Shown in pieces: positions 1-8,511 of a stretch of DNA of 64,000 bases. The notes under the pieces were generated by a model. That model saw nothing but the letters and a program-made list of their open reading frames with translations. It made no database searches and was not told where the DNA came from. Position 1 is the first letter of the stretch, and each line of letters opens with the position of its first letter. The position numbers were made by a program, and so were the translations under genes. The DNA comes from Clostridiales bacterium (GTDB lineage: Bacteria; Bacillota; Clostridia; Lachnospirales; JAQSXR01), in the NCBI GenBank assembly GCA_029256575.1, contig JAQSXR010000015.1, forward strand, positions 19,614 to 83,613, in the 5' to 3' direction.

Positions 1-1403
1 TATCCTCTATTATTAAATAATCTAGAAAGCTCTCTTGCCTCTTCTTTTCTACTGCAAAATACTAATCCCCTTACTCTATTTCCACTGTACCCATAAAAAT
101 TAATTTTTTCAATTATATAGTCAACACGAATATCAGATACAAGTTTTGAGAATTCTGTTGTATCATCAATAATTACCCCATTTACTGTAAGCTCTGTAAT
201 TCCAAAATAGTGAAATGGGCACAATAAATCATTTTCCATTGCCTGTTGCAATCGAATCTCATAAGCAATGTTATGATCAAATAGTTTATAAATGTTAATC
301 CCATCAGTTCTCTCAGGTGTTGCTGTCATACCAAGTAAAAACTTAGGTTTAAAATAATCCAATATTTTTATGTAGCTACTCGCACCGGCCTTGTGTGTTT
401 CATCTATTATTATGTAATCAAAATAATCTGGAGAAAATTCACTGTATACGCTCTCTTTTGACATCATTTGAACAGTAGAAAATAAGTAGTCTGTATCTAT
501 TTCTTTCATACTTCCTGATAACAAGCCCATTGAAATGTTTTCACCCAGAACATCTTTAAAACTTGCTATTGCCTGTTTCAGTATCTGTTCACGGTGAACC
601 AAGAACAAAAGTTTCTTTGGCTTAACATTACGAACATCAAAAGCAGATAAATAAGTCTTACCTGTACCGGTTGCACTAATTATCAAAGCTTTATTCTTAC
701 TTTCACCTCTTAATTTATCCAAAGCCCTTGTAGCAGATATTTGCATTTTGTTTGGCTTTAGTATATATGACTTCATACTAATTAATTTCTGCTTGTCCCT
801 TACTTTTTTGCTCTCCATATACAGCTGTTCATACTTTATTAGCCATTCTTCATTGAGTTCATCCGCTCGATTCCACATTGACTCAAATTCATTCAGAGTT
901 TCTTTAATCAATTCACCCTTTTCCAAAGAGGTAACCTTTAGACTCCACTCTTTATTGGACTTCAACGCTTGTTGTGTCATATTTGAACTGCCTACTACAA
1001 AGGTATACTTTTCTTCATTCTTGAACATATATCCTTTTGTATGAAAATTCTCCTTTGTAAATACACGCACCTCTAAATTAGCGAAACCTAGTAACTCTCG
1101 TAATGCACGTGGTTCACTAAATAGTTGATAATCAGTTGTTAATATTTTTCCATGTATGCCTTTTTCACGTAATTCTTTTAAAGTTTCTTTTAATACAATC
1201 AATCCGCCTCTTGTAATAAAAGCAACCGAAAACCAAAATGTCTTACAGTCTTGTAATTCATTTTGGATATTTGCAAGGACAGTATTGCCTTTATGGTAAT
1301 CATTGTAAAGTAATTTTGGGCGTAGTTCTTCAGCTGATTCATAACTACTATCGACTAAACTTGTTCTTACTGACTCAAGTATCTTTTTTGTTAAATTATT
1401 CAT
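1..1403 (-). CDS. PLD nuclease + SF2 (DEAD/DEAH) helicase, SauUSI-like putative Type IV restriction enzyme; 3' end runs off the window
   Basis: Not in ORF track. Manual translation from ATG at 1403: MNNLTKKILES...FWFSVAFIT...FHTKGY...VVGSSNMT (PLD HxK...GSxN), ATGTGKT (Walker A), VHREQIL, IIDETH (Walker B), GMTATPERTDG. Frame is open to base 1. Confidence 0.85.
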   Translation of the reverse strand, partial: MNNLTKKILESVRTSLVDSSYESAEELRPKLLYNDYHKGNTVLANIQNELQDCKTFWFSVAFITRGGLIVLKETLKELREKGIHGKILTTDYQLFSEPRALRELLGFANLEVRVFTKENFHTKGYMFKNEEKYTFVVGSSNMTQQALKSNKEWSLKVTSLEKGELIKETLNEFESMWNRADELNEEWLIKYEQLYMESKKVRDKQKLISMKSYILKPNKMQISATRALDKLRGESKNKALIISATGTGKTYLSAFDVRNVKPKKLLFLVHREQILKQAIASFKDVLGENISMGLLSGSMKEIDTDYLFSTVQMMSKESVYSEFSPDYFDYIIIDETHKAGASSYIKILDYFKPKFLLGMTATPERTDGINIYKLFDHNIAYEIRLQQAMENDLLCPFHYFGITELTVNGVIIDDTTEFSKLVSDIRVDYIIEKINFYGYSGNRVRGLVFCSRKEEARELSRLFNNRG

Positions 1404-3661: not shown

Positions 3662-3862
3662 ATGAGCGAAAAGAACGATATAAATGAACCTTGGGTAGGA
3701 ACAAAAGAGATAGCCGAACATTTAGGGGTTACAAAGAATACTGTTCACAAATGGATAAAAGCTGGATCTATACCATGCAGCAGAGTCGGAAAGTTGTGGA
3801 AGTTTAAGAAATCAGAAATTGACGCTTGGGTAAAATCTGGCGGAGCTGTGGAGGAAAAATAA
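3662..3862 (+). CDS. HTH_17 / excisionase-like DNA-binding protein, probable regulator of the RM operon
   Basis: WVGTKEIAEHLGVTKNTVHKWI...IPCSRVGKLWKFKKSEIDAWV pattern; strong RBS; 1 nt before the next gene. Confidence 0.88.
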   Translation: MSEKNDINEPWVGTKEIAEHLGVTKNTVHKWIKAGSIPCSRVGKLWKFKKSEIDAWVKSGGAVEEK

Positions 3863-3863
3863 T

Positions 3864-5681
3864 ATGGAAATGACTTATTTACAAAGAGCAATCAAAGATG
3901 GGTATGCTTTTATCTCAGGTGAAGATAAGACTGCAAAAATCACCTATGTTTCCTCTGACAATTTTAGTGCAAAATGGGGAAATCCAGAAGAAAACGTGCG
4001 TTCAGAATTTTGGGCAGAGCTTATTTATAAATATGATTATCCAGCTACACGAATAAGGCTTGAGGTAGTTATTCCCGATAGATTACCCACAGATAGAGCC
4101 GACATCGTTATATTCCGTGATGAAGAATGCAAGCGTCCTTATGCCATTGTTGAGTGTAAAAAAGACGGTATAACTGATGCAGAGTTTAACCAAGCAATTG
4201 AGCAAGGTGTAGGAAATGCTACATGGATTAAGTCACGTGCCGACTATGTAGTAACTATAGCAGGTGCAACACGCAGAGTATTGGATGTAACCGATACATA
4301 TGGAATATATGAGCGTGAAACCAATATTGTGGCTGACCTACCAAAAGCCTATGGCAAACCACAAGAATACCGTTTTTATAAAGGTGATAAGGATAATGAT
4401 ATTAAAATTATCTCCAGAGATGACTTAATAACAACGATTAAAAAATGCCATCAAACCCTTTGGGGTGGCGGAAGACTTTCACCACCTACTGCCTTTGGTG
4501 AACTATGCAAACTGATATTTGTTAAGATTAGCGATGAGCAAAAACCACGAAGAAATGGTGAGCCTTATGAGTTCCAAATAAAAACCCATGAGCCATCAAG
4601 CAAACTGGCAGAACGCATCAACAAGCTTTATGATGAGCAAAAGGTAAAAGATCCAGAAATTTTTACTGAAAGCATTAAGGTAGATGACAGAGTTTTAAGA
4701 ACAGTAGTTTCTCACTTGGAGAGTATAAACCTAAATAAAACAGATCTTGATGTTAAAGGTGTTGCCTTTGAGAAGTTTATGGATAGCTTTTTCAAGGGCG
4801 ATTTTGGTCAGTACTTTACACCACGACCAATTATTGAATTTGCAGTTAAAATGATGAAACCTAAACATGATGATTATGTGCTCGATACTTCTTGCGGTAG
4901 TGGCGGTTTCTTACTTCATGCTCTTGATTATATTAGACACGAAGCAAATGATTATCACATTAAAGGAACTCCGGAACACTATAAACACTGGCATGATTTT
5001 GCGGAAAAATATCTATTTGGAATTGAAATAAATGACGAAATTGCACGTGTTGCTAAAATGAATATGATTGTCCATGATGATGGGCACACCAATGTTATCA
5101 GCCATGATGCACTAGAAAGCATTGATAAAATGTACGAACACAATAGAGGTTTTAAGAAAGAGCATTTTGATTTAATTCTGACAAATCCACCATTTGGTTC
5201 ACAGATAAATCTTGCTGAGAAGCCTTATTTATCCACGTATCAATTGGGTAATAATTATGATGCAAAAGGCAAGGCAAAAGCACGTAAAAACCAAAAAACA
5301 GAAATTCTTTTCTTGGAGCGTATTTGGGAGTTTTTGAAATATGGAACAGGCAAAGCTGCTGTGGTTCTCCCTGATGGAATTTTAACCAATAGCTCTCTAC
5401 AATATGTGCGTGGCTATATCATGGAGAAATTTCAATTATTGGCTGTTGTCAGCTTTCCGCAAACTGCTTTTGCACACTTTGGTGCAGGTGTTAAGTCCTC
5501 TATCATCTTCTTGCGAAAGCGTGGCAAAGATGAATTAATGAGTAATGACGAAGTTATTTTTATGGCAGCACCAGAACTCATTGGGTATGACGCAACAGGA
5601 AGAGAAACAGAAAACCAATTTGATGAGGTTGTGAAACAATACGAAGCTTTTTTAGAAGATGCTACCCCTTTTTTTGTCTAA
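3864..5681 (+). CDS. Fused restriction endonuclease (HSDR_N-type PD-(D/E)xK) and N6-adenine DNA methyltransferase, Type IIB/IIG-like RM subunit
   Basis: N-terminal PEENVR...RADIVIF...IVECKK nuclease motif; GQYFTPRP, LDTSCGSGGFL (motif I), GIEIN and TNPPF (motif IV); no helicase domain. Confidence 0.92.
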   Translation: MEMTYLQRAIKDGYAFISGEDKTAKITYVSSDNFSAKWGNPEENVRSEFWAELIYKYDYPATRIRLEVVIPDRLPTDRADIVIFRDEECKRPYAIVECKKDGITDAEFNQAIEQGVGNATWIKSRADYVVTIAGATRRVLDVTDTYGIYERETNIVADLPKAYGKPQEYRFYKGDKDNDIKIISRDDLITTIKKCHQTLWGGGRLSPPTAFGELCKLIFVKISDEQKPRRNGEPYEFQIKTHEPSSKLAERINKLYDEQKVKDPEIFTESIKVDDRVLRTVVSHLESINLNKTDLDVKGVAFEKFMDSFFKGDFGQYFTPRPIIEFAVKMMKPKHDDYVLDTSCGSGGFLLHALDYIRHEANDYHIKGTPEHYKHWHDFAEKYLFGIEINDEIARVAKMNMIVHDDGHTNVISHDALESIDKMYEHNRGFKKEHFDLILTNPPFGSQINLAEKPYLSTYQLGNNYDAKGKAKARKNQKTEILFLERIWEFLKYGTGKAAVVLPDGILTNSSLQYVRGYIMEKFQLLAVVSFPQTAFAHFGAGVKSSIIFLRKRGKDELMSNDEVIFMAAPELIGYDATGRETENQFDEVVKQYEAFLEDATPFFV

Positions 5682-5726
5682 CCCCCAACTCGCAGGAGCT
5701 TCAAATTTTTACGGTGAAATTGGGGG
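5666..5726 (+). promoter_or_regulatory. Candidate programmed -1 ribosomal frameshift signal joining the RM and S frames
   Basis: Slippery C_CCT_TTT and T_TTT_TTT in the RM frame (5666-5675). The -1 frame is open from 5627 into the S ORF. Stem CCCCCAA (5682-5688)/TTGGGGG (5720-5726) starts 6 nt downstream. Confidence 0.6.
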
Positions 5727-7060
5727 AAATACAAAGCAGACTTGATGTTAATTACAATTTACCAGAATATCAATTCTTAGAGAGAGAATTGCGCAGTAAA
5801 TTTAATAATATCAAAACTATTAGTGATTATTCTGATGTTGTTTGTGGACCATTTGGAAGTTCTATTACTGATAAGGACTATTGTGATGAAGGTGTCCCGT
5901 TATTAAGAATAACAAATATTACTCGTGAAGGTAAACTTGACTTCGTAGACCTAAAATACATAAGTGAAGAATTATCAAATAAACTATCAAGCACACAGGT
6001 TTTTAACGGGGATATCGTTATTTCTCAAAGGGGAACATTAGGGCAATGTGCGATTGTAGACGATGCATTCAATGTTTACAATATTTCTGCAAACTTAATC
6101 GCAGTGAAAAATATCAAAAATATGTCTGCAAAATATATTAGAAATTATGTGCTTTCATCAATTGGCATTAAATTTTTAGAACGAGCCCAAAGCGGACAGG
6201 TTCAAGGCAAAATAACAACTACGGATATTTCATCAATGCCTATTCCAAAGATTGAAAATGAAGAATTATTAAATTCGATAATGGAAAAAGGGTTTTTGAC
6301 TTATCAAAATAAAATCACACAAGCTGAAGAATTACTAAAAGGTATGGACTTGTATGTACTGTCTACATTAGGTCTTGAAATTCCTGATTATACGCAAAGG
6401 CTTTGTAATGCAGTAAAGCTCAGGACGGTAAAAACTGACAACACATTAAACGCAGATTTCTATCATCCAGAACGAATTGGAATAATCAGAATGATGGAAC
6501 AAAACACGCATATAAAGACAAAAAGGTTGGTTGACACAGTAGATTTCTGCCGTGATATCGTATCCGCTAATAATGAAAATCTTCGGTATATAGGTCTTGC
6601 AAGCGTTCAAAGTCATACGGGAGAATTATTAAATATAGAGGAAGAAGCAAGTGGCCAAGCATTTGCATTTTTAAAAAATGACGTATTGTATGGCAGATTG
6701 AGACCATATCTCAATAAAGTATTTGTAGCGGAAGAGAATGGTGTTTGTTCAACGGAGTTTCATGTAATGAGAATGAAAACTGAAGATATACTACCCAATT
6801 ATTTATCAGTAATCATGCGAACTCTTATTATTCTTGGACAAACACGACACATGATGACGGGTAACACACATCCTCGTATAGCAAACGCAGAAGTAGAAAA
6901 TTTGCATATTCCTATTCCAAGCAAAGAGATACAACAACAGATAGCGGATGAAGCTATTCGCCGACGAACTATTGCAAGGAAGTTAAAGGAAGAGGCTGAA
7001 ATTGACTGGAAAACGGCAAAAGAACAGTTTGAGAAAGAGTTATTTGGGGGTGATAAATAA
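5714..7060 (+). CDS. HsdS-like specificity subunit with two target recognition domains; true start uncertain, frame open from 5627
   Basis: TRD1 GPFGSSI...GVPLLRITNI...GDIVISQRGTLG; TRD2 NDVLYGRLRPYLNKV...STEF; conserved IPIPSKEIQQQIA spacer helix. Confidence 0.9.
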   Translation: MKLGEIQSRLDVNYNLPEYQFLERELRSKFNNIKTISDYSDVVCGPFGSSITDKDYCDEGVPLLRITNITREGKLDFVDLKYISEELSNKLSSTQVFNGDIVISQRGTLGQCAIVDDAFNVYNISANLIAVKNIKNMSAKYIRNYVLSSIGIKFLERAQSGQVQGKITTTDISSMPIPKIENEELLNSIMEKGFLTYQNKITQAEELLKGMDLYVLSTLGLEIPDYTQRLCNAVKLRTVKTDNTLNADFYHPERIGIIRMMEQNTHIKTKRLVDTVDFCRDIVSANNENLRYIGLASVQSHTGELLNIEEEASGQAFAFLKNDVLYGRLRPYLNKVFVAEENGVCSTEFHVMRMKTEDILPNYLSVIMRTLIILGQTRHMMTGNTHPRIANAEVENLHIPIPSKEIQQQIADEAIRRRTIARKLKEEAEIDWKTAKEQFEKELFGGDK

Positions 7061-8511
7061 TGAAACTGAGTGGAATTGTTGATTATACAATGGGTAATTT
7101 TCTATGTTTAAGGGGTTATGCATCATTTAAAGACTTGTCTCGCATTTCCCAGCCAAACCCTGATTATCAACGCCCCTTAATAGATAATCATAAAGGGGAC
7201 ATGGCACGTTTTTTAAATCAAGGAGAATATCTTTTTTTCCCAGAAGTGATTTTATCATTATCCTTAGCAACAAATGGTAATTACGATGAAATTAGAAATA
7301 TACAAACCATCATTTCAGCAGGTGATACTTGGAATGGGTCTTTAGGTGATTTTAAGATTGATATGTCTAAAAACGAAACTAAGTCGCATAGTGGTGGAGT
7401 TAATAGAGTACGGCTTGGTCACATTACGTTTGACGAATCTAAAATAAAGCTTAATAGAATTGATGGAAATCACCGAATGAGTGCTGCTGATGAAACAATC
7501 AGTGACTTCAAAACCCCCTTTTGTATTTTGCTATTTGCAAACGAACAGGAGAATGAAAAATTTTCTCGAGCAATATTTCACAACGTGAACGCAAAACAAA
7601 TTCCGTTAAAGTTAGAAGAAAACTTGAAAGTTATTTTAGATAACGATCTTGTTTATTCCGATACTTCACTGACTAGCTCATTTGGTTATAATTACTATTT
7701 GGCACGGAAAACATTAAAAAGTATAGATTTGGCATATTTCGCCAATTTCAACACCTACATAGGAACTTCGAAATACACTTTTTTTGTGGCATTATTTGAA
7801 TACCTCATTAGTAACAATAGCATTCCAAATACTGATGAATCAATTGAAATAATTAAAGGACAACTTGTAGATATAGAAACTGCTCTTGCTGAATCACAAG
7901 TTGTTGCAACAACTACCAATATTGCTATTATAGGTGCACTGGCTTATTACAAATTGACTAATCAGCTAAAATACCGTGGTTTTATGTCTTGGATTAAGAA
8001 AAATAACCTTGGAAATGTTCAAATGTTGCATATAGGTGATGTAATAAAACTCTATGATGAAATAGCTGCACATACTCCTAAAAGAGCTTTCTTGGCAAGG
8101 TGGTACCCATCAGAAACAGATTCAGCATATACTAAGTCAAAGCATCGAATAGATGCGATGAAACAGGTGGCTGATGAACTCAATCTTGATTTGACGGATC
8201 TTGGAACAAAAGATACAGGTGCATTTGATATCAGAGAAGTTATGTATCACGATATACGTGAATGTGATGTATTTATTGCAGACTTAACGGGGGCGCGCCA
8301 CAATGTAATGATTGAAGTTGGATATGCTTTAAAGCATATCGGAACTGGACGAATGGTATTCTATTTTCAAGAAACTGAAAATTGCAAAGCTGTTCCATTT
8401 GATATCAGTCATCTAGCGTACGACCTTATTGTTGATTCAGCAGAGATAAAGAGTAAAACAAAAACAAGAATTCAAAAGGTCATTTTGCAAGCAATGAATG
8501 GAGAAATATAG
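7060..8511 (+). CDS. DGQHR (DndB/ParB-like) domain fused to a C-terminal nucleoside 2-deoxyribosyltransferase/TIR-like domain; putative defence effector
   Basis: YQRPL...FFPEVILSL...RIDGNHRM...IFHNVNAKQIPL (DGQHR family motifs). C-terminus has CDVFIADLTGARHNVMIEVGYAL...VPFDI (NDT-like). TAATG overlap with the S stop codon. Confidence 0.75.
   Translation: MKLSGIVDYTMGNFLCLRGYASFKDLSRISQPNPDYQRPLIDNHKGDMARFLNQGEYLFFPEVILSLSLATNGNYDEIRNIQTIISAGDTWNGSLGDFKIDMSKNETKSHSGGVNRVRLGHITFDESKIKLNRIDGNHRMSAADETISDFKTPFCILLFANEQENEKFSRAIFHNVNAKQIPLKLEENLKVILDNDLVYSDTSLTSSFGYNYYLARKTLKSIDLAYFANFNTYIGTSKYTFFVALFEYLISNNSIPNTDESIEIIKGQLVDIETALAESQVVATTTNIAIIGALAYYKLTNQLKYRGFMSWIKKNNLGNVQMLHIGDVIKLYDEIAAHTPKRAFLARWYPSETDSAYTKSKHRIDAMKQVADELNLDLTDLGTKDTGAFDIREVMYHDIRECDVFIADLTGARHNVMIEVGYALKHIGTGRMVFYFQETENCKAVPFDISHLAYDLIVDSAEIKSKTKTRIQKVILQAMNGEI

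Follow-up and report, generated by a model that had tools for sequence, protein, structure and literature searches.

How is the specificity subunit of a restriction-modification enzyme produced when its gene carries no conventional start signals and lies out of frame with the gene that precedes it? This question is raised by a cassette of four genes (in the order HTH, RM, S and a DGQHR/TIR-like gene) present in a 64,000-nucleotide (nt) stretch of DNA, hereafter called the window, from a Clostridiales bacterium (assembly GCA_029256575.1, contig JAQSXR010000015.1, positions 19,614 to 83,613 of the forward strand). RM (3864..5681, plus strand) encodes a protein of 605 amino acids (aa), while S was called as an open reading frame (ORF) of 448 aa running from a GTG to position 7060 in frame +2, which is the -1 frame with respect to RM. 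The HTH, RM and fourth genes possess conventional start signals, whereas S is devoid of them: the GTG taken as its start by the gene caller (5714..5716, plus strand) has no well-spaced Shine-Dalgarno sequence, the sole AGGAG near S (5694-5698) being located 15 nt upstream, and it is buried inside a putative stem-loop. Both the position of this GTG and its distance from the AGGAG had been pointed out in an initial, sequence-only reading of the locus, and both were confirmed. That reading had proposed that S is reached by ribosomes that change frame at the end of RM. From the comparison of many related loci, we consider it likely that the RM/S junction is a canonical programmed -1 ribosomal frameshift cassette, from which both RM and an RM-S fusion protein would be obtained.

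The 3' end of RM reads ACC CCT TTT TTT GTC TAA; it contains a run of seven T residues (T7; 5669-5675) followed by the TAA stop codon at 5679-5681, and the zero-frame product ends with ...ATPFFV. In the phase of RM, the run corresponds to the slippery heptamer T_TTT_TTT (5669..5675, plus strand), formed by the last base of the CCT codon and two Phe codons. A spacer of 6 nt, GTC TAA (5676..5681, plus strand), provides the final codon of RM as well as its stop, and is followed by the putative stimulatory stem-loop (5682..5726, plus strand), in whose outer helix CCCCCAA (5682-5688) pairs with TTGGGGG (5720-5726). The S frame lacks any stop from position 5627 onwards, two stops being located just before it at 5621-5626. 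The exact -1 phase of S, its open stretch from 5627 and the complementarity of the two arms behind the 6-nt spacer (GTCTAA) had all been described in the sequence-only reading and were reproduced in our analysis. It had also listed two overlapping heptamers; both are correctly positioned and T_TTT_TTY is conserved, but C_CCT_TTT requires an ACC codon, and most relatives have ACA CCT instead and thus do not possess this second heptamer. Two small hairpins that it had drawn within the outer helix are neither part of the minimum-free-energy fold nor conserved, and the interior of the stem-loop of the window is poorly defined.

We envision the following course of events at this site. A ribosome translating the RM mRNA would encounter U_UUU_UUU with tRNA-Phe in both its P and A sites, while the helix 6 nt downstream would oppose unwinding. 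In a fraction of the ribosomes, both tRNAs would re-pair one base back on UUU UUU, and these ribosomes would continue in the S frame (UGU CUA ACC CCC ...) to generate an RM-linker-S protein of 1065 aa; ribosomes that do not slip would decode GUC and then terminate, yielding the 605-aa RM protein. The predicted slip product comprises 604 + 461 aa, and the lengths given in the earlier reading for RM and RM-S (605 and about 1065 aa) were thus confirmed by translation. Its -1 frame part (5675..7060, plus strand) consists of the linker CLTPNSQELQIF and an S moiety with two target-recognition domains (TRDs); the junction reads PFF followed by CLTPNSQELQIFTVK, and the predicted trans-frame peptide is ...ATPFFCLTPNSQELQIFTVK. 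Expected masses are 69 kDa for RM, about 120 kDa for RM-S and about 51 kDa for a free S protein. A single mRNA would in this way feed an (RM)(RM-S) assembly with two RM per S, the ratio found in Type IIB enzymes and in the methylase core of Type I enzymes, and the provision of this ratio is presumably the purpose of the arrangement. Heptamers of the type H_HH.U_UU.Y are reported to be among the most efficient -1 frameshift motifs in E. coli (PMC4066793).

The arrangement seen in the window is widespread. A scan with one genome per species (set 1) yielded 80 loci with 54-80% identity to RM, which can be sorted into 69 with the layout of the window, eight in-frame fusions of RM to an S with one TRD, and three in which RM runs off the contig. 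The 69 window-like loci (RM identity 54-79%) derive from at least 10 phyla, the set-1 record titles naming Bacillota, Chloroflexota, Pseudomonadota, Thermodesulfobacteriota, Lentisphaerota, Kiritimatiellia, Synergistota, Spirochaetota, Actinomycetota and an FCB-group bin. Together with the window they provide 70 split junctions, and each of these carries an in-frame T_TTT_TTY (57 TTTTTTC, 13 TTTTTTT) and an S frame that is in the -1 phase and open across the heptamer. The RM stop codon follows one codon past the heptamer, with the exception of L058, in which it follows after four codons. In this locus (L058:5313-5340), RM is three codons longer and its stop is located within the 5' arm of the stem, while heptamer and stem are retained and S is still in the -1 phase; since L058 has lost the adjacent stop yet kept the cassette, such a stop appears not to be indispensable. 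Among the 120 best RM relatives (77-89% identity), 117 end with xFFx-stop (PFFA in 75, PFFV in 31, other residues in the remainder); the other three are in-frame fusions to a one-TRD S that lack the PFF motif.

The heptamer bears the marks of selection at the nucleotide level. The codon in front of the Phe pair is CCT in 63 of the 70 junctions, TCT in four, CGT in two and AGT in one, so that its third base is T in 70/70 across Pro, Ser and Arg, while a mean of 0.26 would be expected from the codon usage of the respective genes. TTT likewise serves as the first Phe codon in 70/70, against an expected mean of 0.56 from the codon usage of each gene; in proteobacterial genes of 51-64% G+C, the expected TTT share is 0.11-0.62. 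A codon alignment of 68 RM genes, covering 417 conserved-residue columns, permits a comparison with the remainder of the gene: the chance that two RM genes share a codon averages 0.42 gene-wide and is 1.0 at the Pro and Phe positions of the heptamer (CCT 62/62, TTT 68/68), while a conserved Phe eight codons upstream of the heptamer is specified by TTC in 36 genes and by TTT in 32. When windows of four columns are ranked by codon identity, the final two occupy ranks 1 and 2 of 414.

The same cassette occurs in the opposite polarity. A metagenome scan seeded with in-frame fusions (set 2) provided 80 loci, in 75 of which the junction is present; they comprise 25 loci with a reversed cassette, 16 in-frame fusions without the heptamer, 31 conventional split pairs and three that run off the contig. 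At the 25 reversed loci, it is the zero frame that continues into S, whereas the -1 frame encounters a TAA after exactly one codon. Their in-frame T_TTT_TTY follows an AAT, GAT or AGT codon, again with T as the third base, and the 6-nt spacer reads GTTAAR or GGTAAA, its Val or Gly codon being GTT or GGT in 25/25. The stem is of the type GCCCCGC.../...GCGGGGC and comprises 12 base pairs with an energy of -26 kcal/mol in L094. The predicted slip product of these loci is RM alone, ending with FFR, and 20 of them encode full-length fusions, while two run off the contig and three are cut later. The metagenomic loci L093-L118 carry in-frame RM-S genes for proteins of about 1065 aa, in which the junction lies about 1.8 kb into the ORF and both the cassette and the -1 stop are kept; judged by these features, the "single-chain" enzymes of this clade may be accompanied by free RM that arises through frameshifting.

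All 95 loci with a heptamer in the two sets possess a stem of at least five consecutive base pairs that begins exactly 6 nt past the heptamer, and in 95/95 the stem lies 13 nt from the first T of the run. The sequences of the arms vary: 33 distinct pairs were found among the 95 loci, for instance CCCCCG/CGGGGG, CCCCCAA/TTGGGGG (the window), GCCCTG/CAGGGC, GCCCCGT/ACGGGGC, CCCCAGGTA../..TACCTGGGG and CCCCAGGTAGGC/GTTTACCTGGGG. Covariation was assessed with 63 distinct junctions; L030 and four Chloroflexota loci that contain long insertions were not included. In this alignment, 99.2% of the cells of the outer helix are paired, and double changes occur at three of its six pairs; the inner helix shows them at six of eight pairs (one of them being A-U in 22, G-C in 19 and G-U in 9 junctions). 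For the whole structure, double changes affect 9 of the 14 pairs, the values of five measures were reached in none of 500 shuffles, and pairing amounts to 88.6% versus 45-58% when the partners are slid. RNAalifold recovers the outer helix alone, since the interior of the stem differs between clades. Six relatives folded individually gave energies between -18 and -47 kcal/mol (z -2.8 to -6.7), and the median fold energies of split (-21.0 kcal/mol) and reversed loci (-21.7 kcal/mol) are similar. In four Chloroflexota loci (L068, L069, L072, L073), a near-perfect long hairpin is inserted into the stem-loop, spanning 3 to about 80 nt past the RM stop; in L069 it reads GACTTCCGAAGTCTT...GACTTCGGAAGTC, and the entire structure has an energy of -47 kcal/mol (z -6.7). 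The S frame remains open through this insert, which thus adds residues to the predicted linker. The comparison of homologous junctions suggested with the sequence-only reading has hence uncovered the -1 phase (70/70), the slippery heptamer with a preceding third base T (70/70) and a covarying stem at a fixed spacing of 6 nt; neither a variable phase nor a good ribosome-binding site for S, which that reading had named as contrary outcomes, was seen among the homologs.

Could S nevertheless be initiated on its own? Of the 70 split junctions surveyed for this purpose, 69 are assessable, one locus being cut. In 26 of these 69, no ATG, GTG or TTG is present in the S frame until 50 to >200 nt past the RM stop, and the first candidate start then falls beyond the conserved N-terminal C-x-F-A-V-x-R-G-D/E motif of S. 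In many relatives, the frameshift is therefore the sole visible route to S, whose frame lacks a start codon. Where candidates do exist, a Shine-Dalgarno-like 4-mer at -16 to -4 is found for just two of 45 candidate starts. The GTG of the window specifies the conserved Val of a ..V(K/R)(L/R)G(D/E) motif, and in most Bacillota relatives this codon is GTC, GTT, ATC or GTA.

The segment between the heptamer and the S domain also has the appearance of protein-coding DNA. Natural in-frame RM-S proteins of 1060-1225 aa (43-54% identity) exist, for example in Methanocaldococcus fervens, Microcystis and Planktothrix; when the RM frame and the S frame are compared with these proteins by BLAST, the matched ranges meet at the FF of the fusion, and the -1 translations from the heptamer align collinearly with the natural fusions from their FF. 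In this alignment, the window (FFCLTPNS-QELQIFTVKLGEI) stands beside P0121 (FFWISPD-SENQIFLTYRGEI), P0228 (FFFLTPNV-DDNKLFLIHW), L013 (FFRITPDT-NDLCVFAVKRGDI) and P0146 (FFVKAP---LCFAVGRGDI). Judged by this collinearity, the linker is coding in the -1 frame. The 31 conventional split pairs of set 2 have ATG starts and no heptamer, and conventional split relatives begin S at M-(E/K/Q)-C-F, 3' of the linker. In three of the metagenome loci (L129-L131), S starts with an ATG located 17 nt before the RM stop, so that the two genes overlap; there is no T run at the junction, and the start is preceded by GGGGAG in L129 and by AGGAGGAG in L130 and L131. Such loci provide a helpful natural counterpart to junctions of the frameshift type.

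The distribution of the cassette on a phylogenetic tree bears on its purpose. The tree was computed with FastTree from the RM part of 117 rows, that is the window and 116 of 133 loci submitted (160 loci are contained in sets 1 and 2); a minimum of 450 residues ahead of the GYDA motif was required, and near-duplicate and cut loci were dropped. The eight one-TRD fusions of set 1, in which T_TTT_TTY is absent from the junction, are scattered within a clade of 76 rows (support 100) whose other members are all the 68 split junctions of the tree, and well-supported branches force at least eight changes between the split form and the one-TRD fusion form. The reversed arrangement constitutes a separate clade, and the conventional pairs a third one (support 99). 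An S with two TRDs needs two RM, so that both RM and RM-S would be made, while two RM-S chains with half an S each already supply the same ratio, which would explain why the cassette is gone from the one-TRD fusions. The loss of the cassette together with half of S thus fits the idea that the stoichiometry of the subunits is set by recoding, and this idea, which the sequence-only reading had put forward, gains support, not proof, from it and from the reversed arrangement. With somewhat less confidence than we have in the frameshift itself, we favor the wider view that a recoding module in either polarity sets the RM/S stoichiometry throughout the family, that RM and RM-S are always made together, that free S is never made in many species, and that the module is discarded when S is halved.

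A number of observations weigh against this interpretation of the junction and of the family. The split loci share ancestry, and the counts given above consequently exceed the number of independent events; the shuffle controls for the stem ignore the relatedness of the loci. In the window itself, the stem alone has an energy of -13.8 kcal/mol (z -1.4), a value that 17 of 200 shuffles match; the z-score of the 72-nt window fold (-0.96) is not significant, and the stem is the weakest among seven cassette stems folded together. Of 120 long relatives listed, which are in-frame fusions compared as proteins only, the GYDA anchor motif was found in 100, and 83 of these keep the FF pair; the stem arms encode the conserved residues T/A-P and R-G, and the in-frame fusions L121-L123 have retained the stem without the heptamer; protein constraint on FF and on the residues specified by the stem arms may hence account for part of the conservation. 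The 16 in-frame fusions without a heptamer in set 2 comprise ten with a one-TRD S and six with a two-TRD S, and the latter six are exceptions, since they imply that not every member of the family needs free RM. They are similar to single-chain Type IIB enzymes, of which TstI is reported to be a homotetramer (PMC4027205). Finally, a candidate start overlaps the RM stop in 17 junctions (12 ATGA, three GTGA, two TTG) and lies within the stem in 26, including the GTG of the window and a GTG for the same Val in 15 proteobacterial-type loci. Because the S frame of the window contains both a GTG (+35) and a TTG (+41), some free S is conceivable for this particular copy of the cassette.

These candidate starts are the substance of an explanation by ordinary translational coupling, according to which free S is made by initiation or re-initiation at GTG 5714, the stem hides this start until it is opened by the ribosome that finishes RM, and the T run is kept merely for its Pro-Phe-Phe residues. 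The 12 ATGA overlaps have a counterpart in hsdM/hsdS of EcoKI (PMC3510504), and the conservation of FF in the in-frame fusions and the coding role of the stem arms are in keeping with this view as well. We nonetheless regard it as improbable. It is at odds with the 26 of 69 junctions without a canonical start before the N-terminus of S, in which the codon overlapping the stop is often CTA or GTA, with start positions that are not conserved (the Val of the window GTG being specified by GTC, GTT or ATC elsewhere), and with the near absence of Shine-Dalgarno-like sequences (2/45). The linker lies 5' of all start candidates, yet it is conserved as protein and matches the in-frame fusions. Coupling also leaves unexplained why a third base is fixed across Pro, Ser and Arg, why TTT is preferred over TTC in genes of 58-64% G+C, and why the same heptamer, spacer and stem are found in 25 in-frame fusions that need no start for S. 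A different route to the very same proteins would be slippage of RNA polymerase on the T6-T7 run, which would add one U to some of the transcripts and thereby put S into the RM frame. Homopolymeric U runs are known slippage sites, one extra U would produce an identical fusion and, in the reversed arrangement, an identical truncation, and part of the sequence evidence does not separate the polymerase route from the ribosome route, the phase of the run being dictated by the Phe-Phe motif. UUUUUUU is under-represented in all three frames of enterobacterial genes, for which transcriptional slippage has been considered a possible cause (PMC4066793). What makes this route very unlikely in our eyes is the architecture of the junction: 57 of the 70 runs consist of just six T, while efficient slippage of the polymerase requires about 8-9 or more; the run grows in no lineage, T7 and T8 having arisen by substitution at constant spacing; and a conserved, covarying helix 6 nt downstream is a hallmark of ribosomal frameshifting that is still untranscribed while the polymerase resides on the run. 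The sequence-only reading had itself cautioned that the T run could be a sequencing error, with T8 giving one fused ORF, or a slippage or phase-variation tract. Runs of seven T are indeed error-prone and mutable, and the family includes natural in-frame RM-S proteins of about 1065 aa. The junction could accordingly be functionless: the homopolymer may have been misread in sequencing, a fused RM-S gene may recently have been split by a frameshift mutation, or the tract may switch S on and off by phase variation. To this we attach almost no weight. A second assembly (Logan contig, run X1, depth about 160), probably derived from the source sample and hence not independent, contains the identical T7 without any indel and thus does not show T8; run X1 is the one DNA run listed for the locus, no RNA run being listed, and its data are kept as contigs, in which minor variants of the T tract are not visible. 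The -1 phase is the same in 70/70 junctions, a set of relatives spanning 54-89% protein identity; 117 of the 120 best protein relatives end with xFFx-stop; and among the best 120 of 206 longer-protein matches, no fused two-TRD form exceeds 55% identity, so that no on/off length variants were seen there. Differences between T6, T7 and T8 are due to substitutions that leave the spacing unchanged, and the tract does not switch the frame among relatives, which contradicts the caution expressed earlier. A programmed -1 frameshift by the ribosome remains, in our view, the explanation that best accommodates these observations.

The proposed cassette can be set beside known systems that use frameshifting. 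As in dnaX, which encodes the tau and gamma subunits of DNA polymerase III, two products, one contained within the other, would be set by a heptamer and a downstream stem-loop, and both outcomes occur within one family: just as RM/S loci can be split or reversed, the frameshift product of the dnaX family is shorter in some bacteria and longer in others (PMC4066793). There are also clear differences. The heptamer of E. coli dnaX is A_AAA_AAG, while that of the RM/S cassette is U_UUU_UUY; a Shine-Dalgarno-like stimulator upstream of the heptamer is not conserved in RM/S loci (present in 45/70 split and 1/25 reversed loci); and the longer RM/S product would gain an entire second subunit of a restriction enzyme. 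The orfA-orfB genes of IS3/IS911 elements share with the RM/S junction the heptamer, the short spacer, the stem-loop, a zero-frame stop just past the site and a downstream ORF that lacks an efficient start and is made as a fusion, and U_UU.U_UU.C is among the motifs used by insertion sequences (PMC4066793). The downstream frame of the RM/S cassette, however, encodes a DNA-specificity subunit and not a transposase, and the cassette is found in the reversed polarity as well.

Among restriction-modification systems, the closest parallels are provided by Type I and Type IIB enzymes. In EcoKI, the methylase gene hsdM is followed by hsdS in another frame, as in the RM/S loci, but a 1-nt overlap and translational coupling provide free S, and the accessible text on this system describes neither a slippery site nor a stem (PMC3510504). 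An M-S fusion of EcoKI ("Type IMS"), which was made by mutagenesis, is functional in vivo and, in vitro, depends on additional free M (Roberts et al., 2012; PMC3510504); the combination of a fusion with additional M follows the same logic as the RM plus RM-S proposed here. Type IIB enzymes (BsaXI and BcgI, and the single-chain enzymes TstI and AloI) have an RM chain that joins a nuclease to a methylase and an S with two TRDs, and this domain organization recurs in the window. RM carries an N-terminal PD-(D/E)xK nuclease-like domain (HSDR_N_2, Pfam 9.9e-13) and an N6_Mtase domain (Pfam 1.6e-41), and in RM alignment A1 the residues D80, E97 and K99 (D..ECK) and N441-P-P-F444 (NPPF) are invariant; its closest relative of solved structure is RM.BsaXI (8w0p, E 6.9e-38). 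The two TRDs of S are reflected by matches to Pfam Methylase_S in two stretches, and the PADLOC specificity models likewise match in two stretches. The earlier comparison with BcgI as a 2:1 enzyme rests here on BsaXI, described as (RM)2S (PMC11997821), and on EcoKI (PMC3510504). Among 16 Type IIB enzymes modelled in the same study, eight consist of RM plus S, and the others that could readily be modelled are single-chain RMS fusions; in the accessible text of that study, the word "frameshift" occurs 0 times (PMC11997821). The family of the window differs from both in that it stands between the split and single-chain architectures and would make both types of chain.

The remaining members of the cassette have a more conventional appearance. 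The HTH gene is first in line (3662..3862, plus strand; 66 aa; Pfam HTH_17, 1.8e-16) and has AAGGAGG 9 nt before its ATG, while RM has GGAGG at the same distance from its ATG. The fourth gene (7060..8511, plus strand; 483 aa) is joined to S via TAATG, and a Shine-Dalgarno-like GGGGGTGA ends 6 nt before its ATG; its N-terminal part is DGQHR/DndB-like and its C-terminal part TIR/nucleoside deoxyribosyltransferase-like, with matches to NCBIfam DGQHR (1.5e-7) and Pfam Nuc_deoxyrib_tr (1.1e-4) that are both below the cutoff, and to a PADLOC TIR effector model (4.5e-9). The gene found 3' of S is variable among the 12 relatives checked: three are of similar size with a weak Nuc_deoxyrib_tr match, one has a weak DndB match, and the remaining ones encode a Hypoth_Ymh protein, a D12 methylase, or a protein of about 540 aa without a family. 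The first three genes are matched by NCBIfam and PADLOC models for MAD1 (HTH), MAD2 (methylase) and MAD5 (S), and we considered whether the cassette is a methylation-associated defence system (MADS), an eight-gene operon (PMC13662399). The MAD1-, MAD2- and MAD5-like matches are far below the curated cutoffs (311.8 vs 720; 96.6 vs 400); the HTH gene scores 9.2e-17 against NCBIfam MAD1, below the cutoff, and is matched by PADLOC mad1. No match to mad3, mad4 or mad6-8 was obtained in the eight neighbouring ORFs scanned. With matches below the cutoffs and only MAD1-, MAD2- and MAD5-like genes present, the cassette is not MADS.

Upstream of the cassette, a PLD-helicase gene occupies positions 3-1418, and two overlapping ORFs on the minus strand (2124-2988) encode proteins of 183 aa (DUF4368) and 120 aa (Recombinase, Zn_ribbon_recom). 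From their domains, these two ORFs look like one large serine recombinase broken by a change of frame. The recombinase pieces and the PLD-helicase suggest that the cassette is part of a decayed integrative element or of a defence island. A close homologue was absent from 40 genomes of the same order (best 34% identity), and the plasmid collection contained no close relative (best match 49% identity over 59% of the query). The viral contig collection held a sole exact match to the 21-nt core pattern, at 115-135 (minus strand) of L173, an IMG/VR contig of 49,342 bases, which may represent a prophage or a misbinned bacterial contig.

Few conserved programmed frameshifts are known in bacterial genes beyond insertion sequences, phages, dnaX and prfB. 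We found no prior description of frameshifting between RM or M genes and S genes, and main-text passages of two recoding surveys (Antonov 2013, Atkins 2016) contain no such case either, although supplementary tables, GeneTack or Recode may hold such cases; the nearest published example is a fusion of a C-protein and a restriction endonuclease, for which, according to the accessible text, a possible -1 site was tested and gave no product (PMC3850674). If true, the RM/S junction would, as far as the literature searched is concerned, be the first programmed frameshift in a restriction-modification system. Its significance lies in its breadth over many phyla and in the natural controls that the family offers: the cassette also occurs in reversed polarity, it has been lost repeatedly, and there are conventional relatives whose S genes start normally. 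Gene calling has probably given wrong starts to hundreds of S genes of this family or recorded them as truncated or "start-less", and methylome and REBASE-style predictions may misjudge such loci as broken, while the specificity-bearing protein would in fact be a fusion of about 120 kDa. The reversed arrangement suggests that some "single-chain" RMS enzymes also yield free RM. Frameshifting would offer a simple way to balance an enzyme of two RM and one S from a single mRNA, and the same need for balance may account for the extra M on which the engineered M-S fusion depends.

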